Below, piece by piece: positions 6,898-24,000 of a DNA stretch of 24,000 nt; within the stretch, counting starts at the first letter, position 1, and each line of letters starts with the position of its first letter. The stretch lies in NCBI RefSeq assembly GCF_004297265.1, contig NZ_SCUT01000030.1:95447-119446 (forward strand), written 5' to 3'. This DNA is from Reyranella sp. GTDB taxonomy: Bacteria > Pseudomonadota > Alphaproteobacteria > Reyranellales > Reyranellaceae. The notes under the pieces were generated by a model that saw nothing but the letters and a program-made list of their open reading frames with translations, did no database searches and was not told the DNA's origin. The position numbers were made by a program, and so were the translations under genes.

Positions 6898-6898
6898 C

Positions 6899-7351: not shown

Positions 7352-7358
7352 CGGCGGA

Positions 7359-8852: not shown

Positions 8853-9002
8853 CCACATCCCCTGCGCCTGGCGCCTCGTTTAATCCAATATTTCACCCCT
8901 GCGACGGGACCGCGCAAGCTGCGTTTGGCCGCCGCGCCCCTGCAAAATCGGAGTGGCATCCGGCCGCTGGCACCAGTATCAGTACCGGCCCTCAAAACGG
9001 AC

Positions 9003-10340
9003 ATGGAAATGACCTCAGCAACTCTGCCTCGCGTCTCGGTCGTCGGTCTCGGCAAGCTCGGTGCCCCTCTGGCCGCGGTTCTCGCCAGCCGCGGCTTCAA
9101 CGTGATCGGCCTCGACGTGAACAAGACGCTGGTCGACGCGATGAACGCCGGCAAGATGCCGATCGTCGAGCCGCAGCTCAACGAGCTGATCGCCGCCAAC
9201 AAGCAGCGTCTGTCGGCAACCATGGACGCCAACGAGGCGATCCAGAAGAGCGACGCCAGCTTCGTGATCGTCCCGACCCCGTCTGACAGCACCGGGTTCT
9301 TTTCCAACCGTTTCGTGCTCCAGGCCATGGAGACGCTCGGCAAGGCCCTGAAGAACAAGCAGGGCTATCATATGGTCGTCATCACCAGCACGGTGATGCC
9401 CGGCACGACCGGCACGGAGATCAAGGACGCCCTCGAGGCGGCCTCCGGCCGCAAGGTCGGGCCGGATCTCGGCCTCTGCTACAATCCGGAATTCATTGCG
9501 CTCGGCAGCGTCGTGCGCGACATGCTCTTCCCCGACTCGATTCTGATCGGCGAGAGCGATACCAAGGCCGGCGACATGCTGCAGACCATCTACCTGCAGA
9601 TGTGTGAAAAGAAGCCGCCGGTGCAGCGCATGAACTTCGTGAACGCCGAACTCACCAAGATTTCGGTCAACACCTACGTCACCACCAAGATCTCCTACGC
9701 CAACATGCTGGCCGACATCTGCGACCGCATCCCCGGCGCCGACGTTGACGCGGTGACCAAGGCGCTGGGCGCCGACACCCGCATCGGCGCGAAGTACCTC
9801 AAGGGCGCGATGGGCTACGGTGGCCCCTGCTTCCCGCGCGACAACGTGGCCTTCGCCGCCTTCGCCCGCAAGATCGGCGCCCGCGCCGATGTGGCCGAGG
9901 CGACTGACCGCATCAACAACTTCCAGGTGGAGCGTCTTTCCACCCTCGTTTCGAAGTTCGCGAAGGCGGGCACGCGCATCGCCATACTCGGCCTTTCCTA
10001 CAAGCCGCAGACGCCGGTGGTGGAAGAGAGCCACAGCGTGAAGCTCGCCGCCAAGCTTGCCGACGCGGGCTATGTCGTCACCGTGCACGATCCGCTGGCG
10101 CAGGATGCGGCGCTGGCCGTTCTGGGTGACAAAGTGGTCGGCGCCTCCTCGATCGAAGGCGCGGTCCGCGAATGCGACCTGCTGATCGTCGCGACCGGTT
10201 GGCCGCAATACAAGGAACTCGACCCGGCCTGGTGCAAGCGCAACGGCCAGCGCCTGACCGTACTGGACCTGTGGCGCACCCTCCCCGCCGATACGTTCGA
10301 GGAAGTCGCCGACCTCCTGTATCTCGGATCGGGCCGGTAG
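9003..10340 (+). CDS. Nucleotide-sugar dehydrogenase (UDP-glucose/GDP-mannose dehydrogenase family), substrate unknown
   Basis: Real start at ATG 9003 (or 9009) inside listed ORF 7335..10340; the upstream part is antisense to pepA. N-terminal Rossmann VSVVGLGKLGAPLA, NPEF motif, catalytic-Cys motif GYGGPCFPRDN and a C-terminal UDP-binding-type domain (ILGLSYKPQT). Confidence 0.85.
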   Translation: MEMTSATLPRVSVVGLGKLGAPLAAVLASRGFNVIGLDVNKTLVDAMNAGKMPIVEPQLNELIAANKQRLSATMDANEAIQKSDASFVIVPTPSDSTGFFSNRFVLQAMETLGKALKNKQGYHMVVITSTVMPGTTGTEIKDALEAASGRKVGPDLGLCYNPEFIALGSVVRDMLFPDSILIGESDTKAGDMLQTIYLQMCEKKPPVQRMNFVNAELTKISVNTYVTTKISYANMLADICDRIPGADVDAVTKALGADTRIGAKYLKGAMGYGGPCFPRDNVAFAAFARKIGARADVAEATDRINNFQVERLSTLVSKFAKAGTRIAILGLSYKPQTPVVEESHSVKLAAKLADAGYVVTVHDPLAQDAALAVLGDKVVGASSIEGAVRECDLLIVATGWPQYKELDPAWCKRNGQRLTVLDLWRTLPADTFEEVADLLYLGSGR

Positions 10341-10363
10341 GACCGAGCCCTCATCGGATGACG

Positions 10364-10388
10364 AAGCCCGCCACGTGCGGGCTTTTTC
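10364..10388 (+). terminator. Rho-independent terminator after the dehydrogenase gene
   Basis: Stem aagcccgc (10364-10371) / gcgggctt (10377-10384) with a 5-nt loop, running into a T-run (10383-10387). Confidence 0.6.
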
Positions 10389-10560
10389 ATGCCCTCCCGG
10401 ACAAGCGCGGCGAAGCAAAATCGTCAGCCTCCCCATTCAGATGGGGAGGTGTCGACGTCCTACGTCGACGGAGGGGTCATGAGGCGGTCGTTCGTCCTTC
10501 GGCGCTCTCGGACATTGCAAGCTTGGCGGCTTGTAGCCAAGCCGCAGCCTGTCGCTCAAC

Positions 10561-10581
10561 GGGCCGAGCTTCGCTCGGCCC
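10561..10581 (-). terminator. GC-rich hairpin immediately after the 525-aa GT-like gene (putative terminator, no U-tract)
   Basis: Perfect 9-bp stem gggccgagc (10561-10569) / gctcggccc (10573-10581) with a 3-nt loop, 5 nt beyond the stop at 10587-10589. No T-run follows on the minus strand. Confidence 0.35.
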
Positions 10582-10586
10582 ATACG

Positions 10587-12164
10587 TCAGATCGCGCGAC
10601 GTCCGCGGAAGCGGAGCACCTTGCCGCGCAGGCTCGGATCGACGCGCGGCAGGCCGGCAAGCACCTGGCTGCAGAACGGGTTGATGTTGGCCCCGACATA
10701 GTCGGTGAACAGCGGCCAGAACCGGTTGTAGATCACGTTCACGCCGACGAAGCGACGCGGGGTCCGCCGGCCCGGGGGCCGCGTTTCCGCCTCGGTCGAG
10801 GTCGCCTGCCTGAAGAGCTTCGTCACGACCTTGAGGCGCCTGGCGTCGAGCGGGCCGGCCTGCCGTCCGATCCGGATCGGCTCTTCCGGACTCTGCGTCG
10901 CCAGGCCGAACTCGAAGATGAACATCTCGGCCCGCGGGAGCAGATCCTCGAAGGCCCCCCTCTCCAGTCCTTCCAGATCCGACGGCAGCCCTTCGCACTC
11001 GTTCGGCACCAGGATCGGACCGGTGAAACCCATGGCCCGCCACGCCGTCAGGAACCGCTCGACGAACTCCTTGCGCGTTGCGACGATCATCACCGATGTC
11101 GAGCGCGGATAGGTCAGCATCTGATCGGCCACGAAGGGCAGCGTGTGGTCGATATCGTAGGTGAGATCGTCGTAGAGGAACCATTCGAGGCTCGTCGACG
11201 TGTACGGCACCTTGGCCGGCTTCAGCGCCGCATCGAGCCCTGCCGTGAAGCGCTGGTAGGACGTCTCGCGGTCGAGCCTCACTTCCTCGATCTCGACATC
11301 CGGCCAGCCCCAGTTATCGGCCTGCTCCGGCACATAGGGCGTCGACACGTTCCAGATGTACTGGTCCTGGTCGTTCATCCGCGTCTGCCGGCCCTTGTTG
11401 TTGGCGGCGGCGACGCGGGTGTGATCGCAGTGATACCCGAAGACCTTGTCGATCAGCGTGTCCACGCGTCCGCGATACAGGGCAAGGCGCGCGGCCAGGT
11501 TCGAATCGCAATGCCAGCCCAGCAGCATCGATTCGTCGAAGCCATGGATGGCGAACATGTCCTCGCGAAGCGCCGCCTGGAAATCACCCAGCGCGTCGTA
11601 CTTCATGGGCATGAAGTTATGGACGACCTGATTGAGATGGTAGCGGACCGACCAGTCCCGCAACTTCTCGAGATTGCCGGCGGGATCGCGGCGATCGAAG
11701 GCCGCCTCCCACAGCATCTCCGGCAACTCGAAGCGCGGGATCTGGTAGAAGCCGTCCGGCACAGAGCCCAGGATATCGCTGAGCGACTCGCCCGGGGTGC
11801 GCGAAACCAGAAGCATGTCGGTGTTGGTATAGAGGACCCACCGGTTCCTCGGATTCGACCGGCGCAGCGCCACGTTGCGCGACTGGGCTTCCAGCGCGAC
11901 CAGGTGGGTCTTCGACTTCAGATGCGCATGCTGCTCGGGGCGAATCCGCAGGATCCGGATGACCTTCTTGGCCTTCTCGGTCAGCGTGTCGTGGATCGCC
12001 TCGGGAAACGTCGGATGATCGTCGGGCGTGTTGTAGTCGACGAAGAGAATCTCGTCGTCCGGATCCGACATCACTTCGGCGAGGGCATTGAAGCTGATGG
12101 CCGCCCGCTTGTGCAGGTTGTAGCCGTGCGTGTCGTTGCGGCCGTAGATGATGACGGAAAACAT
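10587..12164 (-). CDS. Atypical GT-A-like glycosyltransferase domain (~250 aa) plus ~275-aa C-terminal region of unknown function
   Basis: ATG at 12162-12164 with a GAGG RBS. N-terminus MFSVIIYGRNDTHGYN resembles the GT2-type first strand. A single-Asp DXD-like site (YTNTDMLL) and a GT-A C-terminal motif (GDFQAALREDMFAIHGFDESMLLGWHCDSNLAARL, compare gWGgEDxdLxxRl). No TM segment. Function is inferred from motif resemblance only. Confidence 0.5.
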   Translation of the reverse strand: MFSVIIYGRNDTHGYNLHKRAAISFNALAEVMSDPDDEILFVDYNTPDDHPTFPEAIHDTLTEKAKKVIRILRIRPEQHAHLKSKTHLVALEAQSRNVALRRSNPRNRWVLYTNTDMLLVSRTPGESLSDILGSVPDGFYQIPRFELPEMLWEAAFDRRDPAGNLEKLRDWSVRYHLNQVVHNFMPMKYDALGDFQAALREDMFAIHGFDESMLLGWHCDSNLAARLALYRGRVDTLIDKVFGYHCDHTRVAAANNKGRQTRMNDQDQYIWNVSTPYVPEQADNWGWPDVEIEEVRLDRETSYQRFTAGLDAALKPAKVPYTSTSLEWFLYDDLTYDIDHTLPFVADQMLTYPRSTSVMIVATRKEFVERFLTAWRAMGFTGPILVPNECEGLPSDLEGLERGAFEDLLPRAEMFIFEFGLATQSPEEPIRIGRQAGPLDARRLKVVTKLFRQATSTEAETRPPGRRTPRRFVGVNVIYNRFWPLFTDYVGANINPFCSQVLAGLPRVDPSLRGKVLRFRGRRAI

Positions 12165-12189
12165 GGGACCTCGCGTGACGGGCGATCAG

Positions 12190-13323
12190 TCAGGAAGCGG
12201 AACGTGCCAGCTCGTTGCGGGCTGCAGCATACTCCACGAGCGTCGGGAGGCCGATGTCCACCACCTGCTGCCAATACGAACGGGCAGCGGACCGGTCCCT
12301 GCCATGGGCGGCGACGCCGAGCTGGAACAGCGCTTCGGCACGACGACCGGCGGTGTCGGCCCGGCCCAGCAGCTCTGATTCAGAAGCCGCTCCGGATTGC
12401 AAAGCCAGCAGCGACGCGACCCAGGAATCCCCGTCGACGATGCCGTCGGAGGACAGAGGCCGCCCAAGACGGAGCAACGCCGTGCGCAGGTACACCGTCC
12501 AGTAGGGATCACGCCTGTCGTTCCTCACCATCATCTCGAGATGGGGCAACGCGGCATCATAGTCGGCCAGGCGCAGGGCGACATAGGCGGCGGCGGAGGG
12601 ACGCCCTCCCAGCAGCCCGAGTTGCTGCCGCCAGTCGGCGTTCGCCTGGTCGATGTGCCCGAGCGCCATGTGCGCAATCCCCCGGGCATTCAAGGCTTCC
12701 GCGTCCTTCGCCCGCGCGGCGAGTACCCGGTCGAGGGCCTCGATGGCGGCCGCGTACTGGCCAAGCGCGGACAGGGCCTCGCCCTTCAGCGCGAGGGCGT
12801 CGAGCGAATTGGGATGAAGCTTCAGCGTGCGTTCATAGTCGGCCAGCGCAAGATCGGGCTGCCCGTCGGCAAGATAGGCATTCCCGCGCGCGAGGTGCGG
12901 CAGGGCAAATTTCTTGAGGGACTTCAGGACCCTCGTGTAGGCGACGATCTCGGCGGTGTGCGATCCCTGCTGGCGCAGGACGAAGTGCCGGTCGGGCGCC
13001 CCTGCCCGCCCCGCCTGCCTGAGCTTGCGGGCCTGCTCGTATCTCGCCGAAGCCGCAGCCGTGTCGCCGCTCATGTCGAGGGCCTCGCCTTCGGCCTCGA
13101 TCGCATCCGAAAAAGCAGGGGAGATTGCAATCGCCTGCCGAAGCAGACGGATGGCCGTCTCGGCGTCACCGGTGCGAAAAAGCGCGGTCGCCCGCAGGAA
13201 GAGATGTTCCGCTTCGCCGCCGTTGCTGCCCGCGACCCATTCGTCGGCCGATTGCCGTCGCCGCGTCCCCAGCACCTCTCGCAGGCTTCCCGACAAGCGC
13301 AACAACATCCCTGAGTTACTCAC
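12190..13323 (-). CDS. Tetratricopeptide-repeat (TPR) protein, soluble
   Basis: Repeated 34-aa TPR-like units (for example ARGNAYLADGQPDLALADYERTLKLHPNS, LALKGEALSALGQYAAAIEALDRVLAA, NARGIAHMALGHIDQANADW). GTG start at 13323 with an AGGAG RBS 7 nt upstream (alternative ATG at 13308). It ends 25 nt upstream of the 525-aa GT-like gene on the same strand. Confidence 0.8.
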   Translation of the reverse strand: MSNSGMLLRLSGSLREVLGTRRRQSADEWVAGSNGGEAEHLFLRATALFRTGDAETAIRLLRQAIAISPAFSDAIEAEGEALDMSGDTAAASARYEQARKLRQAGRAGAPDRHFVLRQQGSHTAEIVAYTRVLKSLKKFALPHLARGNAYLADGQPDLALADYERTLKLHPNSLDALALKGEALSALGQYAAAIEALDRVLAARAKDAEALNARGIAHMALGHIDQANADWRQQLGLLGGRPSAAAYVALRLADYDAALPHLEMMVRNDRRDPYWTVYLRTALLRLGRPLSSDGIVDGDSWVASLLALQSGAASESELLGRADTAGRRAEALFQLGVAAHGRDRSAARSYWQQVVDIGLPTLVEYAAARNELARSAS

Positions 13324-13524
13324 ACAAATGCTCCTGCACGGTACGGGACCGAATAAGCCGCCAAGACGGTGGGGGCCCTATTCTGCCCCGAGATCACACG
13401 CAGAACTGCCGGAAAGCTCCGATGACCCGCCAAAACCGCCATTTCGGCCTGTCCGCTAACTTAGCGTCGCGGGAACGTCAAGGCACCCGGATCGCCCACA
13501 AGGTGCGTCGCCCCGTCGGCGCAA

Positions 13525-13553
13525 TTGACGGAATTCTACCGCGCCGATAACAA
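13525..13553 (+). promoter_or_regulatory. Candidate sigma70-type promoter for the GT354 / nucleotidyltransferase-phosphatase operon
   Basis: TTGACG (13525-13530), 17-nt spacer, TAACAA (13548-13553), about 50 nt upstream of the ATG at 13602. The -10 element is weak. This is a pattern match only. Confidence 0.2.
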
Positions 13554-13601
13554 ACCGGCCCACATAACCGGCGATTCAGCCGTCCGAGCAGGTGTCAACG
13601 A

Positions 13602-14666
13602 ATGAATGCCCCGCCCTATCTCAGCATCGTTGGCTGGGCACGGAACGACGGCTACACGCCGAATTACGCAAAACGCCTCGAACACTCCATAGGCTTTCTC
13701 GTCCGCCAGCTCGACAGGCACAGGATCCCCTCCGAGGTGATCGTCGTGGAATGGAACCCGCCGCCGGGGAGTCCTCTTCTCGCAGACCAGATGAATGGTT
13801 TCCTCGGCGGCACATCCCACGCCAGCGTGCGGTTCATCGTCGTGCCCCCGCAATTCCATCGTGGCCCGCGAGGCTGGCAGAAGCGCGGGATGCACGTGAA
13901 CAACGCGGCGAATGTCGGCTTCCGGCGGGCTCGGGGGCGCTTCGTGACGCCCAAAGCCCTGGATACCTTCTATTCGGACAAGCTCGTCTCGACGATCGGC
14001 CGGCTCGATCTCGACGACCGGCGCGTCTATCGCTGTGACAGGCTCGATGCACGCATGGAGGCCGAGTCCTGGCTCGACCTTGCGGATGACGAACTCCTGG
14101 CCGCGCTGGCACGGCATGTCGTCCTCAGGAACGGGCGGCTGACCCACAGCATCGACTGGAAGATGCGGGACCTTCACACGAATGCCTGCGGTGACTTCAT
14201 CCTCATGTCCACGCCGCGGTGGCACGAAATCCGTGGGTACCAGAAGGATCCGACGGTCCTCTGTCTGGATTCGGACTCGATCGCGCTCCATGCCGCGGCC
14301 GCGCATGGAGCGTCCGAGGTCCACTGGCAGGAAGAGTGCATCTACAAGGTGGTGCATGGAAACACCCACGCGCAACGCGTGGCCACGATCTGGAAGGACT
14401 GGCAACTCAAACTTGACCACTACCTGATCTTGCGCCACCGGCGGGAGCTGGCGATGAATCTCCGGGTGTGGCTCAACTATCCCCGCCGGCGCGTCCGTGG
14501 CCTGGAGGAGATTCTGGCTCCCTCGATCGAACGCCACTTCGTCGCCAAAGCCGCTCGATACGCGAAGAACGACACCTCCCTCGTCACGAACGATGCCGAC
14601 TGGGGCTTGGCCCGCGAGTCACTGTCCGATCGGACCGTGGTTCGCGCCGCCTGGGACACGCCATGA
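13602..14666 (+). CDS. Atypical GT-A-like glycosyltransferase, distant paralog of the 525-aa protein
   Basis: 354 aa. By eye it aligns with the N-terminal half of the 10587..12164 product: LSIVGWARNDGYTPNY vs SVIIYGRNDTHGYNL; VIVVEWNPPPG vs ILFVDYNTPDD; CGDFILMSTPRWHEIRGY vs LGDFQAALREDMFAIHGF; LCLDSDSIALHAA vs LGWHCDSNLAARL. The stop overlaps the next start (ATGA at 14663-14666). Confidence 0.5.
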   Translation: MNAPPYLSIVGWARNDGYTPNYAKRLEHSIGFLVRQLDRHRIPSEVIVVEWNPPPGSPLLADQMNGFLGGTSHASVRFIVVPPQFHRGPRGWQKRGMHVNNAANVGFRRARGRFVTPKALDTFYSDKLVSTIGRLDLDDRRVYRCDRLDARMEAESWLDLADDELLAALARHVVLRNGRLTHSIDWKMRDLHTNACGDFILMSTPRWHEIRGYQKDPTVLCLDSDSIALHAAAAHGASEVHWQEECIYKVVHGNTHAQRVATIWKDWQLKLDHYLILRHRRELAMNLRVWLNYPRRRVRGLEEILAPSIERHFVAKAARYAKNDTSLVTNDADWGLARESLSDRTVVRAAWDTP

Positions 14667-15880
14667 CCGTCCGGCAGGTCGTTTGCCTGGTCGGCGGTCG
14701 CGGGACCCGCCTCGGCCCGCTCACCCAGAACATGCCGAAGCCTCTTCTGGAGGTCGGCGGCCGCCCCTTCCTCGACTATCTGATCGACGAGGCAAACCGC
14801 TTCGGCCTCCAGCGACTGCTGCTGCTGGCCGGGCATAGTGCCGGCGAAGTCGTGCGGCACTATGCCGGCAAGGTCGTCGGCGGACTGTCGATCGACGTGA
14901 TCGTCGAAACGGCTCCCGCGGGGACTGCCGGTGCTCTGGCCAATGCCGCGGCCTCGCTCGATCCGACCTTCTTCCTGGCCAACGGCGATTCCTTCTTCGG
15001 CTTCAACTGGCTGTCCCTCGTGCCGGCGCTGGACCGGGACGACTGGACGGTCCATCTCGCGCTCGCGCGCGGCGTCCGGGGAGGACGCTACGGTCGCCTG
15101 GAAACCCGGGGCAATCGCATATCGAGGTTCCTGCCCAAGGCGGATAGCGACCTGCCGATAAATGCCGGCGTGTATCTCGTCCGGCGCCGGATCCTCGACC
15201 GGATCCGGGAAATCCCCTGCTCGCTCGAGGACGATATTCTTCCGCCTCTCGCCTCGGAAGGCGAACTCCTGGGAACCGCCGCGGAGGGCACATTCATCGA
15301 CATCGGTGTTCCCGACGATTTTGCGCGTTCACAGCAGGCCATGCCGGCCTTCACGCGCCGGCCGGCGGCCTTCCTCGACCGGGATGGCGTGATCAATCAC
15401 GACGACAATTATGTGCATCGGCCGGAGCAGATACGCTGGATCGACGGCGCGAAAGAGGCGGTCCGCTGGCTGAACGATACCGGATACTATGTGTTCGCCG
15501 TCACGAACCAGGCCGGAGTCGCGCGCGGCTACTATGGCGAGGACGCCGTAAACTCGCTCCATGCCTGGATGCAGGGCCAACTGCAGGCCGCCGGGGCACA
15601 CGTGGATTGCTTCGAGTACTGCCCCTATCACCCCGAGGGTACCGTCGAGCGATATCGACGGGTTTCCGAGATGCGCAAGCCGGGACCGGGGATGATCCTC
15701 AAGATCAGAAGAGAGTGGAACATCGACTGGGATCGATCATTCATGATCGGCGATCGCGACATCGACATGCAGGCGGCGGAGGCGGCCGGTATCGCCGGCT
15801 ACCGGTTCCCCGGCGGCAACCTCCTGGATTTCGTCAGGATGCACGCGCCGGCGAAACGAAGAAATCCCTCTTCGCGTTGA
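14663..15880 (+). CDS. Bifunctional sugar-1-phosphate nucleotidyltransferase (HddC/ManC-like) / D,D-heptose 1,7-bisphosphate phosphatase (GmhB-like, HAD-IIIA)
   Basis: ATG at 14663 inside listed ORF 14468..15880. The N-terminal domain has GGRGTRLGPLTQNMPKPLLEV (NTP_transferase). The C-terminal domain, from about nt 15355, matches GmhB motif for motif: FLDRDGVIN, VTNQAGVARG, YCPYHPEG, RKPGPGM, IGDRDIDMQAAEAAG. Confidence 0.8.
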   Translation: MTVRQVVCLVGGRGTRLGPLTQNMPKPLLEVGGRPFLDYLIDEANRFGLQRLLLLAGHSAGEVVRHYAGKVVGGLSIDVIVETAPAGTAGALANAAASLDPTFFLANGDSFFGFNWLSLVPALDRDDWTVHLALARGVRGGRYGRLETRGNRISRFLPKADSDLPINAGVYLVRRRILDRIREIPCSLEDDILPPLASEGELLGTAAEGTFIDIGVPDDFARSQQAMPAFTRRPAAFLDRDGVINHDDNYVHRPEQIRWIDGAKEAVRWLNDTGYYVFAVTNQAGVARGYYGEDAVNSLHAWMQGQLQAAGAHVDCFEYCPYHPEGTVERYRRVSEMRKPGPGMILKIRREWNIDWDRSFMIGDRDIDMQAAEAAGIAGYRFPGGNLLDFVRMHAPAKRRNPSSR

Positions 15881-16808: not shown

Positions 16809-16822
16809 CGCCTCGATCGCGG

Positions 16823-18853
16823 TCAGTAGTGTCCGGCCAGCTCGGGCGTGATCTCGACGGCGCGCGGCGAATAGAGATAGGCGCCCTTCTTGTTGCCCCA
16901 CCAGACGATCTCCCGGCACCACTTCTGGAAGTCGTCGTAGGGCCGGCTCGTGCGGTCGATTTCCACGACGATCGGCACCTTGCGCAGCAGCGCCGGCTCG
17001 CCGCCGCGCACCTTGTTCCAGTAGTCCAGCAGATCGTAGTTGAGCTTCACCTTCACATTGCCCCGGACGAAGGGCTGGTGGACCAACGCATGGTTCAGCT
17101 TAATGGCCTCTTCGACGACCTCGATGGGAAGGCCCGAGCTTCGCGCCTGCACGGTCTCGGACAGCAGCTCGCCGGCTTCGCGGTAGAAGTCGTCGAACTT
17201 CCCGTCGGCCGTCAGCCTGACGAAGATGTACTCGTCTGCCGGCCAGAAGATATTGAGGTATTCCTTCGAGAAGACGTACTCGGAACCACCCTGCTGGATG
17301 GACCGGGCCTCGCTCTCGAAAAAGTCGTTGATCCAGGCGATCGTCGGAAACCGCTTCGCGTCGGCGGCCATGAAGGCCTCGATCATGTCGCGGTAGGAAA
17401 TGCCGGATATACCGTGCGCCAGGATGAGCGGGATCTGGAACAGCTTGTCGAAATGCAGCAGCGCCGTCATCCAGCAGAAGGTGCGCGTGCGGCGCCAGTC
17501 GTCGAGCGGCGTCGCCGCGGTGGCGATGACCAGGTCCTGGACTTCCGGCACATCGTCGTCGAGCTCGATGCGCTCGCCGTGGATGTTGATGATCTTCGAT
17601 TCCACGGTAACCATGCCGTACTTGGCCTGGTAGGCGGGATCGCCCATCTCCGCGTTCGGCAGAATCGACAGGTTGTTGAACTGGATGCGGTTGTGCTGGC
17701 CGTTCTCCATCAGCTGATCGACACCGCGCACGAAGGACTCGTAGGTCTCACCGGGCAGGCCCAGGATCAGGTCCGAGTAGGTCTCGACCTTGTCGCGCGT
17801 GAATCGGCGCTGGAGTTCCATGTAGGTACCGAGCGAGATGTTGTCGCGCTTGATCGCCTCCAGCGTCGGCATGTCGACGCTCTGCATCGACAGGGCGACA
17901 CCCTTGTTCAGGCCGGCGTCGGACAGGATCTTCTGGGTCTCATAGGCCCGTTCCGTGGCGTTCTTGGTGTTCTGGACCGAGAGCGCCACCGGAAAGCCGG
18001 TCTTCGTCTTCACGTCGGCGACGTAGTTGGCGATGTCGACGTCGCGCTTCTGGATGCCGAAGTTGGCATCGCAGCAGAAGATGTACTCGATCTTCTTCTC
18101 GGCGAACCAATCGACCTCGCGATAGAGCCGCTCTTCACCGAACTTGGTGACCTTGCCGGCCGTGGCCGACCCCCAGTCGCAGAAGGTGCAGCGGAACGGG
18201 CAACCGCGGTTGGTTTCCCACAGGCCGATCCAGCTTTCCGTCCGGTTGGCCGCCATGATCTCGTCAAAGGCGCCTTCGAGGAAGGGCGAAGGAATTTCGT
18301 CGAGGTCGCGCACGCGGTCGAGATTCTTGGTGCGGACGAAGCTGCCGTCGGGCTTCACCATGCTGATGCCGGGAATGGCGTCCCAGGTGCTCCGATCGTG
18401 AAATGTCTCCAGGAGCTTCAGGAAAGTCCGCTCGCCCTCATTGTGGACGGCGAGATCGATCTGGCGATTGGCCCGCATGAAGGACTCGGGCTGGTCGGGT
18501 ACGTGCGGCCCACCGAAGATGATGACGATGCCCGGCTTCAACGCCTTCAGGCGACGGGCGATCTCGAGCGAGATCCGGCCGTTCCACACATAGGTGCTGA
18601 AGCCGACGATGTCGGCATCCTTCAGGGCCTCGACCGCATCGGCGATGCGCACGCGCTTGTAGAGCGGCGGCAGGAACCGGTAGAGCTCGGGCTCGGCTGC
18701 AAACTTCTTCACGTAGGTCTGCAGCAACGCGACCGAATATGGCAGATAGTTCTGGCCGGAGAAGGAGTTGTTGATCTGAACCAGGCCGACGACCAAGGCC
18801 CCCGCTCGGGGCGTGGCTTGCGTAGCGGCTTCTGCGGCGTGGGGCGTCGACAT
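16823..18853 (-). CDS. B12-binding-domain radical SAM enzyme (class B-like) with ~255-aa C-terminal extension
   Basis: CxxxCxxC cluster motif in WETNRGCPFRCTFCDWGS (C218/C222/C225 counted from the 18853 start). N-terminal Rossmann-like B12-binding-type domain (ALVVGLVQIN...ADIVGFSTYVW...IIFGGPHV). Start set at ATG 18853 because the 31 upstream codons of the listed ORF are rich in rare A/T-ending codons (tta, cta, caa, tct, aga). Confidence 0.85.
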   Translation of the reverse strand: MSTPHAAEAATQATPRAGALVVGLVQINNSFSGQNYLPYSVALLQTYVKKFAAEPELYRFLPPLYKRVRIADAVEALKDADIVGFSTYVWNGRISLEIARRLKALKPGIVIIFGGPHVPDQPESFMRANRQIDLAVHNEGERTFLKLLETFHDRSTWDAIPGISMVKPDGSFVRTKNLDRVRDLDEIPSPFLEGAFDEIMAANRTESWIGLWETNRGCPFRCTFCDWGSATAGKVTKFGEERLYREVDWFAEKKIEYIFCCDANFGIQKRDVDIANYVADVKTKTGFPVALSVQNTKNATERAYETQKILSDAGLNKGVALSMQSVDMPTLEAIKRDNISLGTYMELQRRFTRDKVETYSDLILGLPGETYESFVRGVDQLMENGQHNRIQFNNLSILPNAEMGDPAYQAKYGMVTVESKIINIHGERIELDDDVPEVQDLVIATAATPLDDWRRTRTFCWMTALLHFDKLFQIPLILAHGISGISYRDMIEAFMAADAKRFPTIAWINDFFESEARSIQQGGSEYVFSKEYLNIFWPADEYIFVRLTADGKFDDFYREAGELLSETVQARSSGLPIEVVEEAIKLNHALVHQPFVRGNVKVKLNYDLLDYWNKVRGGEPALLRKVPIVVEIDRTSRPYDDFQKWCREIVWWGNKKGAYLYSPRAVEITPELAGHY

Positions 18854-18982
18854 TCGCTGCGCTCTGTGTCCGGTCTTCTTGGCGGAAGACGAAGAGGTAG
18901 AGCGCCACTCTTCGCATTGCAATAGGATTGACTGCCATAATCCCATGGTTCAGCAGGGATTTTTCGGTGTCCTGAGGCGAAA

Positions 18983-19960
18983 ATGCAGTTTGCGGGCAAA
19001 AAGATTCTGATCACCGGCGGGGCCGGATTCCTGGGAACCAACCTGGCTCTGAAATTGACGGCCCTCGGCGCCAGACTGCGTCTCACGATGCATCGGAAGC
19101 CTCTTCAGGTCGCGTTCCCTGACGCCGAACTCGTGCAAGCCGACCTGCGACGCCCCGAGGATTGCGCCCGCGTCGTCGAAGGAATGGACGTCGTCTTCAT
19201 CTGCTCGGCACAGACTTCCGGCGCGGGCGTCATCCGCACCACTCCCCTGGTGCATGTCACGCCCAACGTGCTGATCAACAGCCTCCTCCTCGAAGCCGCC
19301 TACCAGGCGCAGGTGAAGAAGGTGTGCTTCATTTCGAGCGGCGCCGCCTATCCGGGGACGGGCGCGCGGCCCGTGACGGAAGCGGAGATGTTCAACGGCG
19401 ATCCGGAGGAGGTCTATTTTCCCGCCGGCTGGATGAAGCGCTACGCCGAGATCCTCTGCCGGACCTATGCCGAGAAGATCGCGAATCCGATGCCCACCGT
19501 GGTCATCCGCCCCTCCAACGTCTACGGCCCCTACGACAAGTTCGACTTTGCCGTGAGCCACGTCACGGCCGCGCTGGTGCGGCGGGTCGCCGAACGGCAG
19601 ACGCCGCTCCAAGTGTGGGGCACCGGCGACGACATCCGGGACCTGATCTACATCGACGATTTCGTCGAGGGCACCCTTGCCGCCGTCGCGACGGACCGGC
19701 CGTTCCTGGCCATCAACATCTGCGCCGGCCAAGGCTATGCCGTCCGGCAGGTCCTCGAAACGCTGCTGGACGTCGATGCATTCCACGACGCCCAAGTGAC
19801 GTTCGATGCCTCGAAACCCAGCACGGTTCCCGTGCGCCTGATGGACAATGGTCTCGCCCGCTCGCTGCTCGGCTTCGAGGCGAAGCTATCCCTGGCGGAA
19901 GGCCTCCGGCGAACCCTGGCCTGGTACAGGAGCGACCCGGCCAGCCCGGCGCGCCGCTAG
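18983..19960 (+). CDS. Extended SDR, GDP-L-fucose synthase (Fcl/GMER)-like, non-canonical active site
   Basis: ATG 18983 with a GAGG RBS. GGAGFLG Rossmann motif. Strong Fcl-like blocks: IRPSNVYGPYDKFDFAVSHVTAALVRR, QVWGTGDDIRDLIYIDD, FDASKPSTVPVRLMD. The YxxxK region reads PAGWMKRY, so Tyr is replaced. Confidence 0.85.
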   Translation: MQFAGKKILITGGAGFLGTNLALKLTALGARLRLTMHRKPLQVAFPDAELVQADLRRPEDCARVVEGMDVVFICSAQTSGAGVIRTTPLVHVTPNVLINSLLLEAAYQAQVKKVCFISSGAAYPGTGARPVTEAEMFNGDPEEVYFPAGWMKRYAEILCRTYAEKIANPMPTVVIRPSNVYGPYDKFDFAVSHVTAALVRRVAERQTPLQVWGTGDDIRDLIYIDDFVEGTLAAVATDRPFLAINICAGQGYAVRQVLETLLDVDAFHDAQVTFDASKPSTVPVRLMDNGLARSLLGFEAKLSLAEGLRRTLAWYRSDPASPARR

Positions 19961-21051
19961 AACGGGCCCCTGAAGCGCTTGTAGCCTTCGGTCATCGATC
20001 GCTCGACCGGAAGCTCGATGCCGTGGCGGCTGCCACAAACCTGCGTCAGGATTGCTTCCACGGTCTCGTGCTGGCTCGGGTAGTAGATGTCCTCGAGGCT
20101 CTTCGCCGTCGGGCAAGGTGCCGCGGCCATGCCGAGCATCGCTGGCGCCTGCCGCAACATCGCCGGATCCCGCATCATGACCTGACGGCAGACCTCGCCA
20201 GCCACGCCATACTCGAGCCAGGACGTATCAGCGATGACCAGACGGCCCGTCTTGCGGATGCTGCCGATCACCAGCTCCCAATCCGGGTGACTGATGGAGT
20301 TGAGATCGATGACTTCGACCTCGATGCCTGCCTTCTCGGCAACGTACTGGGCCGCGCGCAACGCCTCGAGCACCATCACCGACGTCGCCACGACCGTCAC
20401 GTCGCGCCCTTCGCGGGCCACGTAGCTGGTGAGCGGGATCGGCTTCGCCGGCGTCCCGGCGGAAACGGAGAAGTCCAGGTTGTAGAGGAGCCGGTGCTCG
20501 ATGCTCACCACCGGGCCCGGATGCCGGACGATGATCTGCGGATACATGTCCACGATCGCCTGGCTGGTCGACGGCATGACGACCGTCAGGCCGGGATAAT
20601 GGGCGAACGTCGCCTGCGGGCTCTGCGAATGCTGGGCGCCCTGCCCCCAGCTGCGCCCGACGACGAGGCGGATCAGCATGGGGCACGACATGATGCCGCC
20701 GAACATGTAGCGGTACTTCGAGGCCAGGTTGACGATCTGGTTCATCGCCAGGAACGAGAAGTCGGCGCGGATGTGCGTTGTGATCGGATAGTCGCCGACC
20801 AACGCCGCACCGATCGCCACGCCCGTCATGCCTTCTTCCATCAACGGAACGTCGAACACGCGCTGGGCGCCGTACTTCTGCGCGAGGCCGGTGGTCGAGC
20901 CGAAGATGCCCTTAAAGTCGTCGACGCCCTGGCCCATGATGAAGACGTTCGGATGGTCGGCCAGCGCCGAGTCCATCGTCTCCAGCAGCGCACCGGCATA
21001 GGACAGGACGCGCGTCTGTGTCGACGGACGCTCTTTCGAAGAGACGTTCAT
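19957..21051 (-). CDS. TPP-dependent 2-oxoacid dehydrogenase E1 component, beta subunit-like (Transket_pyr + Transketolase_C)
   Basis: 364 aa with FDVPLMEEGMTGVAIGAALVG (pyrimidine-binding domain) and a C-terminal transketolase-C-like domain (GRDVTVVATSVMVLEALRAA...IEVEVIDL). ATG at 21049-21051, 14 nt after the alpha-subunit stop. Confidence 0.85.
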   Translation of the reverse strand: MNVSSKERPSTQTRVLSYAGALLETMDSALADHPNVFIMGQGVDDFKGIFGSTTGLAQKYGAQRVFDVPLMEEGMTGVAIGAALVGDYPITTHIRADFSFLAMNQIVNLASKYRYMFGGIMSCPMLIRLVVGRSWGQGAQHSQSPQATFAHYPGLTVVMPSTSQAIVDMYPQIIVRHPGPVVSIEHRLLYNLDFSVSAGTPAKPIPLTSYVAREGRDVTVVATSVMVLEALRAAQYVAEKAGIEVEVIDLNSISHPDWELVIGSIRKTGRLVIADTSWLEYGVAGEVCRQVMMRDPAMLRQAPAMLGMAAAPCPTAKSLEDIYYPSQHETVEAILTQVCGSRHGIELPVERSMTEGYKRFRGPF

Positions 21052-21065
21052 GCTTCAAGCCCTGT

Positions 21066-21992
21066 CTAGATGATGTCGGTCAGCAGTTCATCGCGCCCCG
21101 GGAAGGGGCTTGTCTCGGCGAACTCGGCGGCTGCCGCGATCTCCCGATCGATCTCCGGCTTGAGCTCGGCAACGAGCTTCTCGTCGAGCAGCAGCGGATC
21201 GCGCGCCTTCCAGGCGTCGATGTCGGTCGCGTTGCGATACCCGAAATGGAAATCGTCGCCGACGCCGACATGCTCCTTGTAGCGCCCGGTTGCGATCTCG
21301 AGGACGAAGGGGCGGCCTGCCCGTACGACGGACAACGCATCCAGCGTGGCCTGCCGGATCGCCAGCATGTCCCAACCCTCGTCCAGCCGTCGCGCTTCGA
21401 TGCCGAAGGTCTTGGCGTGTTCGAGCAGATTGTAGGATTGCCGGGCGTTCTTGAAACTGTGCACGGCGAGCCCGTTATCCTCGCACAGGAACAGGACCGG
21501 CACCTTCATGAGTGCCGCGAAGTTCAGGCTCTCGTGGTAGACGCCCTCCTCGGTCGCACCGTCGCCGAACACCGCGACGGCCACGCGCGAGCTGCCCCGG
21601 CGCTTGAACGAGAGCGCCGCGCCGACGGCGTGGGGAATGGAACTGGCGACGACGGCGGAGGAGCCCATCAGCCCGACTTCCGGCGCCGACAGGTGCATCG
21701 AGCCAGCCTTTCCCTTGGAGACGCCGCCGACGCGGCCATAGAGTTCCGCGAACATCTTGGGCAGCGAGCCGCCCTTGGCGATGTAGAAGCCATGCGAGCG
21801 ATAGGTCGCAAACACGAGATCGTCGACGTTCAAGGCGTCGCAAACCCCGACGGCTACGGCTTCCTGGCCGATCGACAGATGAACGGGGCTTTGGATCCTG
21901 TCGGAGGGGTAGAGCTCGATGATGCGCTCTTCGACCAGCCTGATCGTCAGCGCTGTCCGGAAAAGTCGGCGGTAGCGCTCGTCGCTGTCCAT
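21066..21992 (-). CDS. TPP-dependent 2-oxoacid dehydrogenase E1 component, alpha subunit-like
   Basis: E1_dh-like: ELYPSDRIQSPVHLSIGQEA, YRSHG, and the TPP motif GDGATEEG-x-CEDNG (GDG...N spacing ~27). The listed ORF begins at a TTG (21995); the adjacent ATG at 21990-21992 is the more likely start. Confidence 0.85.
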   Translation of the reverse strand: MDSDERYRRLFRTALTIRLVEERIIELYPSDRIQSPVHLSIGQEAVAVGVCDALNVDDLVFATYRSHGFYIAKGGSLPKMFAELYGRVGGVSKGKAGSMHLSAPEVGLMGSSAVVASSIPHAVGAALSFKRRGSSRVAVAVFGDGATEEGVYHESLNFAALMKVPVLFLCEDNGLAVHSFKNARQSYNLLEHAKTFGIEARRLDEGWDMLAIRQATLDALSVVRAGRPFVLEIATGRYKEHVGVGDDFHFGYRNATDIDAWKARDPLLLDEKLVAELKPEIDREIAAAAEFAETSPFPGRDELLTDII

Positions 21993-22067
21993 CAAACTAC
22001 ATTCCCCAAGCCTGAAAGTCGGCCATTCCGGCCGCCGGTGCCGCCTCTCCTAGCGATACACCTGCAA

Positions 22068-23018
22068 CTATTCAACATTCCGGTTGGCCCGATACCAGGC
22101 GAGCAGTTCGGTCAGTCCGTCCTGAACCGACGTTGCCGGACGCCAACCCGTGGCTTCCATGAACCGGCGCCCAGAAACGCGCAGCATCGCAGGGCCCAGA
22201 TTCTGGCCTTCCAGTTCGACCTCCGCATCGCCAAAGCCGTCGGCGTCGAGCAGCGCCTCCAGGATCGACCGGACCGAGACTTCGTCCGGAGTTGCCACGT
22301 TGAAAGCCCGGAAGCCCCGTTCGTCGGGCCGGCAGACCGCTTTCACGGCCGCGGCCAGATCGCGGGCGTGGATCAGGTTTCGCGTCTGGGTACCATCTCC
22401 GGCCAGCCGGATCGGCCGGGTGCGCTCGACCACCCGTCGGACGAGCGACGGCAGGAAGTGGCCTGTTCGCGGGTCGAAGTCGTCGTGCGGACCGTAGACG
22501 AGGGTCGGTCTCAGGACGATGGCGGAGTCCAGCCAACCCAGCGTCCTGACATACCATTCGAGCTGTTTTTCCAGGTAGCGGTGCATCCACCCCACCCCGA
22601 ACCAGTGCCCCGGTGGATTGCCGGACTCGTATTGCTCCTCCTCCAGCAACTCCGTGGCGGGCGGATAGCCCGTGCAGGAGCTGACGAGCACGACATGCCT
22701 CGCGTCGCCTCGTGCCGCGGCTTCCAGGGCATTGGTGACGATACGCAGGTTGTCGAGTACCGACTCCACCGGCTCCTCCCGCAGCACGGCACTGGTGGAG
22801 ACCCGGCCGGCGCACAGGACGACCGTGTTGCAGCCGGCGAAAGCGCGCGACGCCTGGGCCCGATCGTTGAAATCGCACTGGACCCACTGGATGCCTTCGG
22901 CGGCAAAGGGCCGGCGCGACCTGTAGGTCGCAACCACGGGCTCTCCCGTCGGGCCAGCGAGCACCTCGACGACGTGCCTTCCGATCAGGCCCGTCGCACC
23001 CGCCACTGCGATCGTCAT
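22068..23018 (-). CDS. Extended SDR, Fcl/GMER-like paralog, non-canonical active site
   Basis: MTIAVAGATGLIG Rossmann motif at ATG 23016-23018 (GAAGGA upstream; alternative ATG at 23039). Fcl-like blocks VSSCTGYP, LRPTLVYGPHDDFDPRTGHFLPSLVRR, GDGTQTRNLIHARD. The YxxxK region reads GVGWMHRY, so Tyr and Lys are both replaced. Confidence 0.8.
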   Translation of the reverse strand: MTIAVAGATGLIGRHVVEVLAGPTGEPVVATYRSRRPFAAEGIQWVQCDFNDRAQASRAFAGCNTVVLCAGRVSTSAVLREEPVESVLDNLRIVTNALEAAARGDARHVVLVSSCTGYPPATELLEEEQYESGNPPGHWFGVGWMHRYLEKQLEWYVRTLGWLDSAIVLRPTLVYGPHDDFDPRTGHFLPSLVRRVVERTRPIRLAGDGTQTRNLIHARDLAAAVKAVCRPDERGFRAFNVATPDEVSVRSILEALLDADGFGDAEVELEGQNLGPAMLRVSGRRFMEATGWRPATSVQDGLTELLAWYRANRNVE

Positions 23019-23150
23019 CGTCCTTCGGTCTCCCCTCATCTGCTTGCCGCGTCGACCGTAACCGCCGGCCGGCAGATTGTCGCATAGTTCGGTCGACCGG
23101 GCCGTTGGACGTGCTAAGGAACGCGCGCAAACGGACGAGTTGACGGGAAA

Positions 23151-24000
23151 ATGGGAATGTCGCCGCAGCAGCGCCTTGGACAGAAAGAATTCGAAGTCGC
23201 GGTCGGGATCCCGGCGGGAAGCCTGGACGAGCGCACCAAGGCGCTCCTGGAGAAGACCCCGCTGCTGTTTTCAGCCCTCGACGACCAAGCCCAGGCGGCC
23301 GCGCGCGCGAACGTGGCCGAGGACATCGACCGCGGTTTCACGGTCGTCGGCGAGCATCGCGCCTCCATCTGGCGCGACGCGTGGCAAGATCACCTGGACG
23401 ATTTCATCGGGTCCGGACACGCGCTGGAAGCGCTCAATCCGCGGTTCGTGGGCGGCACCGTCCTCCTGCGCTGGCAGGGCGCCTATATCGAGGGTGTCAC
23501 CGAGCGCTTCGAGCTGGCCTTCCTCGAGATCTTCCGCGACTGGCTGTTCCGGACCTATCTTGCGGATGCGTCGCATCTCTACGAGTTCGGCAGCGGCAGC
23601 GCCTTCAACGTCGCAGCCTATGCGAAACTCTATCCACAGACCTCGATCACCGCGCTCGACTGGGCACCCGCTGCGGTGAAGATCGCCGACCTGCTGGGCG
23701 AGCGGCATGGCATGAAGATCTCCGGCCGGCGGTTCGATTTCTTCGCCCCGGAAAGCGGTTTCGAGTTCGCTCCTAACAGCAGCGTGCTGACCATGTGTGC
23801 GCTGGAACAGGTGGGCGACAGGTTCCAGCCGTTCCTGGATTTCCTCCTCGCAAAGCGCCCGCAGCGAGTGGTGCATGTGGAGCCCATGCTGGAACTCTAC
23901 GATCCGGATCTGCCGCACGACGCCCTGGCCATCCGGTATCACCAGCAGCGCAAGTACCTCAGCGGGCTCCTGCCTCATCTGCGCTCGCTCGAGAAGGCCG
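23151..24000 (+). CDS. Class I SAM-dependent methyltransferase (putative), 3' end beyond window; not in the supplied ORF track
   Basis: My own translation from ATG 23151 (in-frame stop TAA at 23115) is open to nt 24000: MGMSPQQRLGQKEFEVAVGIP...HLYEFGSGSAFNVAAYAKLYPQTSITALDWAP...VLTMCALEQV.... It has a motif I-like EFGSGSAFN, G/C-rich third codon positions and ordinary amino-acid composition. The listed competing ORFs (23077..23679 +, 23271..23978 -) are Arg/Ser/Pro-rich or antisense. Confidence 0.6.
   Translation, partial: MGMSPQQRLGQKEFEVAVGIPAGSLDERTKALLEKTPLLFSALDDQAQAAARANVAEDIDRGFTVVGEHRASIWRDAWQDHLDDFIGSGHALEALNPRFVGGTVLLRWQGAYIEGVTERFELAFLEIFRDWLFRTYLADASHLYEFGSGSAFNVAAYAKLYPQTSITALDWAPAAVKIADLLGERHGMKISGRRFDFFAPESGFEFAPNSSVLTMCALEQVGDRFQPFLDFLLAKRPQRVVHVEPMLELYDPDLPHDALAIRYHQQRKYLSGLLPHLRSLEKA

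Follow-up and report, generated by a model that had tools for sequence, protein, structure and literature searches.

In ABC-transporter-dependent pathways the entire glycan is assembled by soluble or peripheral enzymes at the cytoplasmic face, and an all-soluble gene set is therefore to be expected of them. The E1alpha/E1beta homologues Plm8/9 (= Pau11/12) and AviB1/B2 attach a pyruvate-derived two-carbon (C2) branch to 4-keto sugars (PMC4802897), and in paulomycin the acetyl branch at C-4 is reduced by Pau7, an aldo-keto reductase (AKR) (PMC4753412). Gram-negative bacteria are known to branch sugars via a single flavoprotein, YerE (PMC4753412). A precedent from 2024 for a tetratricopeptide repeat (TPR)-like module on a chain-terminating glycosyltransferase (GT) is the GT-B-like ORF7 of Klebsiella O4 (GT137) (PMC11231755). 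Here we describe an island at positions 9003-24000 of a 24,000-nt stretch of Reyranella DNA (contig NZ_SCUT01000030.1; the whole stretch is called the window), in which twelve genes for soluble proteins, arranged in seven transcription units of alternating orientation, include an E1alpha/E1beta pair, an AKR, a B12-dependent radical S-adenosylmethionine (SAM) enzyme (rSAM), a nucleotidyltransferase-phosphatase fusion and two glycosyltransferase-like proteins, GT525 and GT354, the first of them with a TPR partner.

We consider it probable that this locus is the soluble enzyme set of a strain-variable, ABC-transporter-dependent surface-polysaccharide locus of the O-antigen-like or capsule-like kind. 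Its product is most likely an unusual branched seven-carbon sugar for an exported surface polysaccharide and not for a cytoplasmic protein.

Export genes and the replaceable island

The case for export comes from the relatives of the locus. A tblastn synteny table was assembled from 80 genome loci (all Reyranellales) and 16 metagenome loci, with flanks of about 10 kb; exporter and cassette counts refer to the 56 loci with at least 8 kb upstream, and the pairing of the TPR gene with GT525 to 74 loci. A Wzm/Wzt ABC-2 exporter stands beside the TPR-GT525 pair in 22 of the 56 (~40%), including the locus of the Reyranella soli type strain, which reads methyltransferase, short-chain dehydrogenase/reductase (SDR), cytidylyltransferase-PfkB, SDR, RmlD-like, APH-type kinase, Wzt, Wzm, TPR, GT525 and NDP-sugar 6-dehydrogenase (UGDH). 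Locus L098 holds, within 20 kb, all the cassette genes of the window together with an FkbM methyltransferase, a GT2-GT41 fusion, Wzt, Wzm, TPR and GT525. The contexts of distant GT525 homologues were read from four individually examined loci. The Microvirga homologue (47% identity) lies between UGDH and methyltransferases with a GT4 gene and Wzm/Wzt 6-9 kb downstream, and the others lie among O-polysaccharide genes (GT2, GT4, DegT, WbqC, acyltransferase and FkbM methyltransferases). Since Wzm/Wzt is linked to the pair in relatives and in L098, the product is most likely exported, as an O-antigen-like polysaccharide.

In R. soli NBRC 108950 the APH-family kinase gene (L039:5649-6818) lies next to Wzt/Wzm, with a methyltransferase of that cluster some 5 kb upstream. 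The R. soli arrangement is reminiscent of the chain terminator WbdD of E. coli O9a, which combines kinase and methyltransferase.

The relatives share a conserved backbone in the order UGDH-pepA-holC-FkbM-like-cyclase-MFS-ABC-F, and their upstream content varies. The window-type rSAM cassette is present in 20 of the 56 loci and Wzm/Wzt in 22, five loci having both; in eight, surA-pdxA is reached within 10 kb upstream, in some cases after intervening methyltransferase genes (MT24, FkbM). Wherever the cassette is present, the gene content and zig-zag orientation of the block E1alpha-E1beta / SDR1 / rSAM-AKR / NTP-HAD are unchanged. Enhydrobacter aerosaccus ATCC 27094 (FUWJ01), a cultured type strain, has this block, as do numerous Reyranella genomes and metagenome contigs. 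The window-type island is also carried by the complete Reyranella chromosomes NZ_OZ252257.1 and NZ_OZ257251.1 and by contig NZ_CAMFKM010000004.1. The nearest genome locus, L073, encodes a GT525 protein 98% identical to that of the window, the DNA being ~90% identical. In L058 (NZ_OZ245767.1) the backbone is 95-97% identical to that of the window (88-97% for the backbone proteins), GT525 is 80% and the TPR protein 43% identical, and the cassette is a different one. With L073, L010 and L011 the blastn alignment is in each case interrupted at ~10393-10593, at the convergent UGDH/GT525 spacer (10341-10586), the left recombination junction of the variable island. This break, together with L058, is the signature of whole-locus replacement by recombination. 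The locus is thus a replaceable, serotype-like glycan island at a fixed Reyranellales site, extending from pepA-holC/UGDH to surA-pdxA.

What follows position 24000 was deduced from four metagenome contigs (L090, L092, L093 and L096) that are collinear with the window at 83-89% DNA identity. In these the order is the end of the methyltransferase, a dehydratase SDR, a GHMP kinase, an RmlC-like epimerase, an AGE-family epimerase, an FkbM methyltransferase and surA-pdxA. The dehydratase matches GDP-D-glycero-D-manno-heptose 4,6-dehydratase (7US5) at 352 bits (E 2e-104), and the HddA-like GHMP kinase lies two genes past the window end in all four contigs and in L007. Genes for GmhA (SIS) and HldE-like proteins occur in L005, L009 and L078, the only loci in which GmhA was seen.

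These comparisons bear on several claims of an earlier note made from the letters of the window alone. Its central proposal, cytoplasmic transfer of the sugar, possibly onto a protein, is not supported, given the Wzm/Wzt genes linked to GT525 in relatives, in L098 and in Microvirga, and the departure from a textbook O-antigen or capsule layout that it saw turns out to be one of sugar chemistry and not of logic. A standard ABC-dependent pathway in the flanks, which it had named as speaking against its proposal, is present in relatives as Wzm/Wzt but not in the window-type island as far as surA. The note had suggested looking beyond 24000 for a GMD-like dehydratase, an HddA-like kinase and GmhA; the first two are there in syntenic relatives, and GmhA was not seen in the island. 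Its assumption that the genes belong together is borne out, as the recurrence of the block in many genomes with its orientation kept argues against random juxtaposition.

Two side observations concern the synteny table. In an 8-Mb Reyranella genome (L008:19033-21974, minus strand) the TPR-GT525-Wzm-Wzt set abuts a gene for a 2,859-aa GH94 cyclic beta-1,2-glucan synthase-like protein in place of UGDH-pepA, so that this pair is relocated or at a second site. Furthermore, several metagenome-assembled genomes (MAGs) titled as other genera have Reyranella-type synteny and proteins 75-94% identical, namely L015 and L079 (Asaia bogorensis), L066 (Devosia equisanguinis), L068 (Rhizobium sp. Q54), L088 (Novosphingobium sp.) and L048 (Hyphomonas), and by these identities their taxonomic labels look wrong.

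Sugar-building enzymes, glycosyltransferases and gene layout

The fusion gene (14663-15880, plus strand; Pfam NTP_transferase and HAD) encodes a C-terminal half that matches E. coli GmhB in the PDB at E 1e-36 and an N-terminal half that matches Yersinia HddC (5XHW/6JQ8, E 3e-23) and GMPPB (9e-24). The fusion protein is predicted from these matches to carry out GDP-heptose-type activation, the GDP specificity itself being presumed from homology. Because of these matches, and of the dehydratase and kinase in relatives, a route through GDP-heptose and then GDP-4-keto-6-deoxyheptose is indicated. Wherever the synteny table has the rSAM gene, the fusion gene accompanies it (22/22). This co-presence suggests that the rSAM enzyme acts on a nucleotide-linked sugar, although it does not show it.

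The rSAM enzyme (16823-18853, minus strand; Pfam B12-binding, PF02310, and Radical_SAM, PF04055) has an N-terminal B12 domain and the motif CPFRCTFC (CxxxCxxC) at residue 218. In the PDB it matches TokK at E 9e-99 over residues 35-486 and CysS at E 1.5e-59, and its orthologues are 676-683 aa long and 82-96% identical. It is thus a candidate C-methylase of the TokK/CysS/KedN5 type, which by homology would act on an sp3 carbon, possibly iteratively.

E1beta (19957-21051, minus strand; Pfam Transket_pyr and Transketolase_C) and E1alpha (21066-21992, minus strand; Pfam E1_dh, E 1.3e-49) form a thiamine diphosphate (ThDP) enzyme. E1alpha has the ThDP-binding motif GDG-x27-EDN and is always paired with E1beta, which is 83-96% identical in relatives; no E2, E3 or lipoyl gene was found in the locus. 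It is plausible, by analogy with the antibiotic pathways, that the two are a sugar-branching pair that would transfer a two-carbon acyl group to an NDP-4-keto sugar. The AKR gene (15834-16808, minus strand; Pfam Aldo_ket_red, E 3.5e-50) is translationally linked downstream of the rSAM gene, and its product is, by the same analogy, a candidate reductase of the acetyl branch. Since Gram-negative bacteria are known to use YerE for branching, E1alpha/E1beta with an AKR in an alphaproteobacterium would be a variant. A second, divergent E1alpha/E1beta pair (~40% identity to the first) is present at L005:630-2649 and L009:2918-4937, where it comes with an adh_short reductase and a class I methyltransferase; it implies two different branch-adding modules within one locus.

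Two further enzymes resemble GDP-fucose synthases. SDR1 (18983-19960, plus strand), an Fcl-like extended SDR, matches E. coli GMER (PDB 1E6U) at E 2e-31, and SDR2 (22068-23018, minus strand) matches GDP-L-fucose synthase (PDB 8DU0) at E 8e-19, the two being ~30% identical to each other. Neither has the Ser-Tyr-Lys triad of the Fcl/GMER SDRs. In SDR1, PAGWMK aligns to PYAIAK of Fcl, with Ala in place of Fcl Y136, YxxxK is absent throughout and GWMKRY is kept in 20 of 20 orthologues; in SDR2, YxxxK is likewise absent and GWMHRY is found in 10 of 10. The last gene of the window (23151 to beyond 24000, plus strand) is cut by the window end. Its product, 312 aa at full length in L090, has no Pfam match; a motif I (YEFGSGSA) and 35-38% identity to 309-aa proteins of L005 and L009, which themselves have weak Methyltransf_12/25 matches, make it a probable class I SAM methyltransferase.

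The glycosyltransferases proved harder to place from databases. GT525 (10587-12164, minus strand) has no match in Pfam, NCBIfam or PDB sequences, including a profile search against the PDB, and GT354 (13602-14666, plus strand) none in Pfam or NCBIfam, a profile search against PDB sequences giving nothing meaningful. Only one of 31 GT525-family members has a marginal Glyco_transf_7C match (E 0.005), and GT525 itself gave no Pfam GT2, GT7 or GT8 match. An AlphaFold2 (AF2) model of GT525 reached pLDDT 89.2 and pTM 0.85, values that depend on alignment depth, since with a set of 74-87% identity the catalytic half had pLDDT 58 and the addition of ~40% homologues brought the model to 89.2. The model has an N-terminal GT-A domain (~1-290) and a Rossmann-like C-terminal domain. 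Foldseek against the PDB gave 44 matches at E<=1e-3, GT-A enzymes throughout among the matches listed, led by the chondroitin polymerase K4CP (E 1e-8) and LARGE1 and followed by B4GALNT1, hyaluronan synthases, GalNAc-T2, RmlT and LgtC. On this model GT525 can be confidently assigned as a GT-A-fold glycosyltransferase. Its invariant residues include D43, N45, D116, D194, H245, C246 and H248. At the DxD site a lone invariant Asp stands at the expected strand end (N114-T115-D116 in GT525, A-S/L-D121 in GT354), and the invariant H245-C246-x-H248 could supply the C-terminal His of GT-A enzymes. Since the C-terminal domain of GT525 lacks a conserved acidic motif, a single active site is probable.

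Alignment of GT354 to the catalytic domain of GT525 with hhalign gave a probability of 98.4% (E 4.9e-15, 228 columns), and the motifs RNDxY, EWNPP/DYNTP, NVxxRR and GDF are common to both. GT354, whose orthologues (42-93% identity) are found in cassette-bearing loci, would by this homology be a one-domain protein remotely paralogous to the catalytic domain of GT525, and is a putative second glycosyltransferase. The two belong to one large GT-A-like family without a database name, the GT525 family comprising 1223 representatives at 50% identity. The best match of GT525 is 95% identical in the protein database and 98% in GTDB genomes, and its close homologues number in the hundreds, from Reyranella, Enhydrobacter or Reyranellales wherever an organism is named. 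Distant homologues (P0244-P0390) are mostly 700-2,500 aa long, with the GT525 module at the N-terminus and a further 200-2,000 C-terminal residues without any Pfam match.

The TPR gene (12190-13308/13323, minus strand) is co-transcribed with GT525; in 73 of 74 loci it is the immediate upstream neighbour of GT525 in the same orientation, 17-168 bp away. Its soluble product has Pfam TPR_1/2/16/19 repeats at residues 117-240 and varies with cassette type (41-86% identity). Homologue P0304 unites a GT525 module with a GT4 domain and with TPR repeats in a single chain. The TPR protein is probably a scaffold or partner of GT525. On the other side of GT525, the UGDH-like gene (9003/9009-10340, plus strand; start probably 9009, 443 aa) has the N, central and C domains of Pfam UDPG_MGDP_dh and scores 350 bits with TIGR03026. 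It is 81-97% identical in relatives, adjoins GT525 in 46 of the 56 loci as the conserved left flank of the island, and a UGDH gene is likewise found no more than ~2 kb away from the distant GT525 homologues of L106 and L109.

Since the GC content of the window is 61-67%, long spurious open reading frames (ORFs) are common, and genes were therefore called from third-position GC (GC3) framing, Pfam/NCBIfam matches and ortholog lengths. Four long plus-strand ORFs of 689-1001 aa (7335-10340, 10389-12917, 16718-18925 and 21018-23087) were rejected as high-GC artefacts, being antisense to or overlapping Pfam-supported genes; 7335-10340 also enters the real UGDH frame, and for the one artefact ORF that passed the GC3 filter GC3 alone gave no discrimination. 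The refined starts are 14663 for the fusion, whose ATG overlaps the GT354 stop (14666) and indicates translational coupling, 16808 for the AKR, 18853 for the rSAM enzyme and 23018 for SDR2. An upstream ATG at 23039 would give SDR2 a 323-aa reading, 23018 being preferred, and the rSAM ORF could be extended by 31 codons to an ATG at 18946; ortholog length favours 18853, and the divergent gap to SDR1 is then 129 bp. The three divergent gaps, 13324-13601 (the TPR/GT354 intergenic region, read from the sequence), 18854-18982 and 23019-23150, agree with these starts, and there are two convergent overlaps, 15834-15880 (47 bp) and 19957-19960 (4 bp). The three divergent regions gave no match to an Rfam family, no tRNA and no sigma-70 consensus, and terminator-like sites there are at chance level. 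A Kyte-Doolittle scan with 19 residues revealed no transmembrane-like segment in the 12 products, the top mean of 1.63 belonging to a Rossmann GxGxxG strand, and Pfam and NCBIfam searches of 9003-24000 found no domain of Wzx, Wzy, an ABC-2 exporter, a polysaccharide co-polymerase (PCP) or a polyprenyl-phosphate transferase.

In its description of the locus the earlier note fared better than in its conclusion. Its twelve soluble genes on their strands are upheld by GC3, by Pfam/NCBIfam and by ortholog lengths, the coordinates of its three divergent hubs and two convergent overlaps match the refined starts, and it was right that there is no transmembrane helix in these products and, within 9003-24000, no Wzx/Wzy, ABC exporter, chain-length regulator or initiating transferase. 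It had described the alternation of units correctly and counted six where its own list holds seven. Its atypical GT-A proteins are such by fold (GT525) and by profile homology (GT354), and its catalytically atypical Fcl-like SDRs do lack YxxxK, with the catalytic Tyr of Fcl replaced. The NDP-heptose-type activation that it proposed agrees with the matches to GmhB and the Yersinia HddC structures, and the C-branching and C-methylation are plausible given the parallel with Pau11/12 and Pau7 and the closeness of the rSAM enzyme to TokK and CysS.

The first part of the window (1-8858) is conserved backbone and encodes a formyltransferase fragment, an ABC-F ATPase, an MFS transporter, a cyclase-family protein, an FkbM-like protein, HolC and PepA. 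The ABC protein at 1040-3394 was rejected as an exporter, as it is a soluble ABC-F protein with two ATPase domains and without a permease, and the MFS gene (3398-4624) is part of the backbone. The FkbM-like protein of 361 aa (5812-6897, plus strand), next to holC and outside the island, has a weak Methyltransf_21 match (E 9e-4) and is syntenic and 55-94% identical in relatives. In other cassette types the gene immediately downstream of GT525 encodes a paralogue of it (46-50% identity), and it may act as an accessory methyltransferase of the glycan system.

Proposed pathway and competing explanations

From the observed gene content, co-conservation, folds, family assignments and exporter linkage in relatives we infer a pathway, including its step order, substrates, acceptor, final structure and the exporter in this genome. 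The HddA-like GHMP kinase encoded past the window in relatives would phosphorylate heptose 7-phosphate, and the GmhB-HddC fusion would then dephosphorylate and nucleotidylate the product to GDP-D-glycero-alpha-D-manno-heptose. The heptose 4,6-dehydratase, also encoded past the window, would convert this to a 4-keto-6-deoxy intermediate, to which the ThDP-dependent E1alpha/E1beta pair may add a pyruvate-derived two-carbon acyl branch, the AKR reducing it to a hydroxyethyl group. The rSAM enzyme may then C-methylate an unactivated carbon, possibly repeatedly, and the two Tyr-less SDRs and the methyltransferase(s) would complete the sugar. We envisage that GT354, and GT525 held by the TPR protein, build a lipid-linked glycan at the inner membrane face from the cassette sugar and from UDP-glucuronic acid (UDP-GlcA) supplied by the adjacent dehydrogenase, and that Wzm/Wzt, which in the window lineage would be encoded elsewhere, exports it.

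A more specific version can be put forward only tentatively. In it, GT525 and GT354 represent a new and widespread GT-A family whose TPR-partnered member would serve as the conserved polymerase or chain-control module of ABC-exported glycans in Reyranellales and Hyphomicrobiales, and the cassette would make a hitherto undescribed class of sugar, a GDP-6-deoxyheptose whose pyruvate-derived C2 branch is lengthened by iterative rSAM methylation to give a branched C9-C11 sugar.

Several observations weigh against the exported-polysaccharide proposal. As judged from syntenic relatives, the window-type island up to surA contains no exporter, initiating polyprenyl-phosphate transferase or ligase, and the exporter must therefore be encoded elsewhere or be absent. 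GmhA was not seen in that island either, its syntenic continuation to surA included. The enzymes fall short of NCBIfam cut-offs, the fusion scoring 153 bits against 178 for GmhB and 81 against 300 for HddC, E1beta 230 against 321 for PDH E1 beta, and the rSAM enzyme 292 against 700 for the KedN5 family; these proteins are therefore relatives and not equivalogs. Neither SDR1 nor SDR2 has the catalytic Tyr. In place of a canonical DxD, GT525 and GT354 each show one conserved Asp (NTD / ASD), and across the order GT525 keeps an identity of 75-98%, unusually high for an O-antigen transferase. Finally, a literature search for Reyranella lipopolysaccharide returned nothing relevant, and no Reyranella glycan structure was found.

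Of the competing explanations, the one that keeps most of its force, though we would give it only a minor share of the probability, is that two unrelated systems meet at one hot spot: UGDH, GT525 and the TPR protein would form a housekeeping glycan module (e.g. for a GlcA primer, core or linker), and the heptose/E1/rSAM cassette would encode an independent nucleotide-sugar or small-molecule pathway with a different acceptor. Most loci do have TPR-GT525 without the cassette, L001 and L019 carry wholly different cargo, in L009, located on the 150-kb contig that also has P0019, more than 10 kb separate the cassette from GT525, and TokK, CysS and KedN5 are natural-product enzymes. However, the cassette is accompanied by GT354, the paralogue of GT525, whose gene is translationally coupled to that of HddC-GmhB, and the alleles of TPR and GT525 switch with cassette type in equally related backbones (L058 versus L011 and L073); nor were polyketide synthase (PKS), non-ribosomal peptide synthetase (NRPS) or aglycone genes found.

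It is unlikely that GT525 and GT354 transfer the sugar in the cytoplasm onto a protein such as a flagellin, adhesin or S-layer protein, with the TPR protein recognising the substrate as in FlmG or OGT. That TPR and GT together make up the FlmG/OGT architecture speaks for it, as do the soluble enzyme families of all 12 products and of about five more genes as far as surA in syntenic relatives, and the high conservation of GT525 is what a fixed acceptor would lead one to expect. A further hint is the 814-aa GT2-GT41 (OGT-like) fusion at L098:10968-13412 (plus strand), in the cluster that has the full cassette and Wzm/Wzt, because to our knowledge all characterised GT41 activities are protein glycosylation. 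Against this, Wzm/Wzt lies immediately beside TPR-GT525 in the loci counted above and is linked to the Microvirga homologue, no flagellin, adhesin or S-layer gene was seen among ~100 loci, and distant family members are surrounded by genes typical of O-polysaccharide loci.

An intracellular polymethylated polysaccharide or storage glycan, comparable to the mycobacterial methylmannose polysaccharide and methylglucose lipopolysaccharide (MMP/MGLP), would account for an all-soluble, methyltransferase-rich set, for the lack of membrane proteins from UGDH to surA in the window lineage and for the FkbM and class I methyltransferases that recur beside GT525 homologues in every lineage examined, but it is highly improbable given the exporter linkage in relatives, the lack of any MMP-type hydrolase or GH partner among the genes seen and the occurrence of heavily tailored deoxy-heptoses in the surface glycans of Campylobacter and Yersinia.

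Two other candidates were rejected: a flagellin glycosylation island, as flagellar genes are present in no locus, and a phosphonate or natural-product cluster, as there is no phosphoenolpyruvate (PEP) mutase, PKS or NRPS.

Comparison with known systems

Should the exported-polysaccharide proposal be correct, Reyranella and Enhydrobacter, which are abundant in soil, freshwater and drinking-water systems, would have a surface glycan of unusual chemistry. The locus gives functional context, a confident model and conserved motifs to an unnamed glycosyltransferase family, and the pepA-surA hot spot could be used for a serotyping-like comparison of environmental genomes. Since each variant is carried by cultured type strains, the predictions are directly testable: E. 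aerosaccus ATCC 27094 has the window-type cassette, R. soli NBRC 108950 the Wzm/Wzt type, and R. massiliensis 521 and R. aquatilis KCTC 52223 have types rich in methyltransferases. If all the modules act on one nucleotide sugar, the substrate range of B12 rSAM methylases and ThDP carboligases would be wider, which is of interest for biocatalysis, and if the tentative reading of a branched C9-C11 sugar is true, a radical alkylation of this kind, on a nucleotide sugar, would be without precedent in primary cell-surface glycan synthesis.

With regard to its architecture, the locus is closest to ABC-dependent O-polysaccharide loci such as those of E. coli O9a and the Klebsiella O-serotypes, with which it has in common soluble or peripheral GTs, abundant methyltransferases and replaceability between conserved flanks. 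In relatives Wzm/Wzt lies beside GT genes as it does there, and the APH-type kinase of R. soli is reminiscent of terminal capping. It differs from them in that the window-type island is without Wzm/Wzt and in that no coiled-coil terminator was identified. Compared with ORF7 of Klebsiella O4 (GT137), GT525 has a GT-A and not a GT-B-like fold and its TPR is a separate polypeptide. The same two features, together with the lack of a flagellin or S-layer gene, set it apart from the TPR-GT protein glycosyltransferases (OGT/GT41, FlmG), whose GT-B fold it does not have. The top Foldseek matches of GT525 over both domains (443 columns), K4CP and LARGE1, are UDP-GlcA-using two-domain GT-A polymerases, although the sequence identity is ~10%, the TM-score ~0.33 and the domain arrangement different. 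The UDP-sugar dehydrogenases kfoF/kfiD accompany the K4/K5 polymerases, just as UGDH adjoins GT525 in the window.

With regard to sugar chemistry, the GmhB and HddC-like domains are common to the window and to the GDP-6-deoxy-heptose pathways of the Campylobacter jejuni capsule and the Yersinia pseudotuberculosis O-antigen; the dehydratase, GHMP kinase and RmlC-like epimerase of those pathways are matched in the syntenic continuation, and Fcl-like SDRs are present in the window itself. Unlike those pathways, the window has HddC and GmhB fused and SDRs without YxxxK, adds E1alpha/E1beta, an AKR and a B12 rSAM enzyme, and has no GmhA in the island. AviB1/AviB2 and Pau11/Pau12 with Pau7 are, as here, stand-alone PDH-like E1 pairs without E2/E3, near an AKR and NDP-4-keto-sugar enzymes, a likeness drawn from domain content and published descriptions and not from sequence comparison. 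The host here is Gram-negative, the substrate presumably a GDP-heptose and not a dTDP-deoxyhexose, and the setting a polysaccharide locus and not an antibiotic cluster. TokK/ThnK (carbapenem) and CysS (cystobactamid) are sequential methylases of sp3 carbons and have the B12 domain and CxxxCxxC motif in common with the window rSAM enzyme, which differs in its presumed nucleotide-sugar substrate, in a C-terminal region of ~190 aa outside the TokK match and in its linkage to a nucleotidyltransferase. What is new is the combination of a GDP-heptose pathway with an E1alpha/E1beta-AKR branching module and a TokK-like methylase, along with Tyr-less SDRs and a large unnamed GT-A family with a dedicated TPR partner, bringing together modules hitherto studied apart: GDP-heptose tailoring as in the capsules of pathogens, sugar branching by E1alpha/E1beta and an AKR as in actinomycete antibiotics, and iterative radical methylation of the TokK/CysS type.

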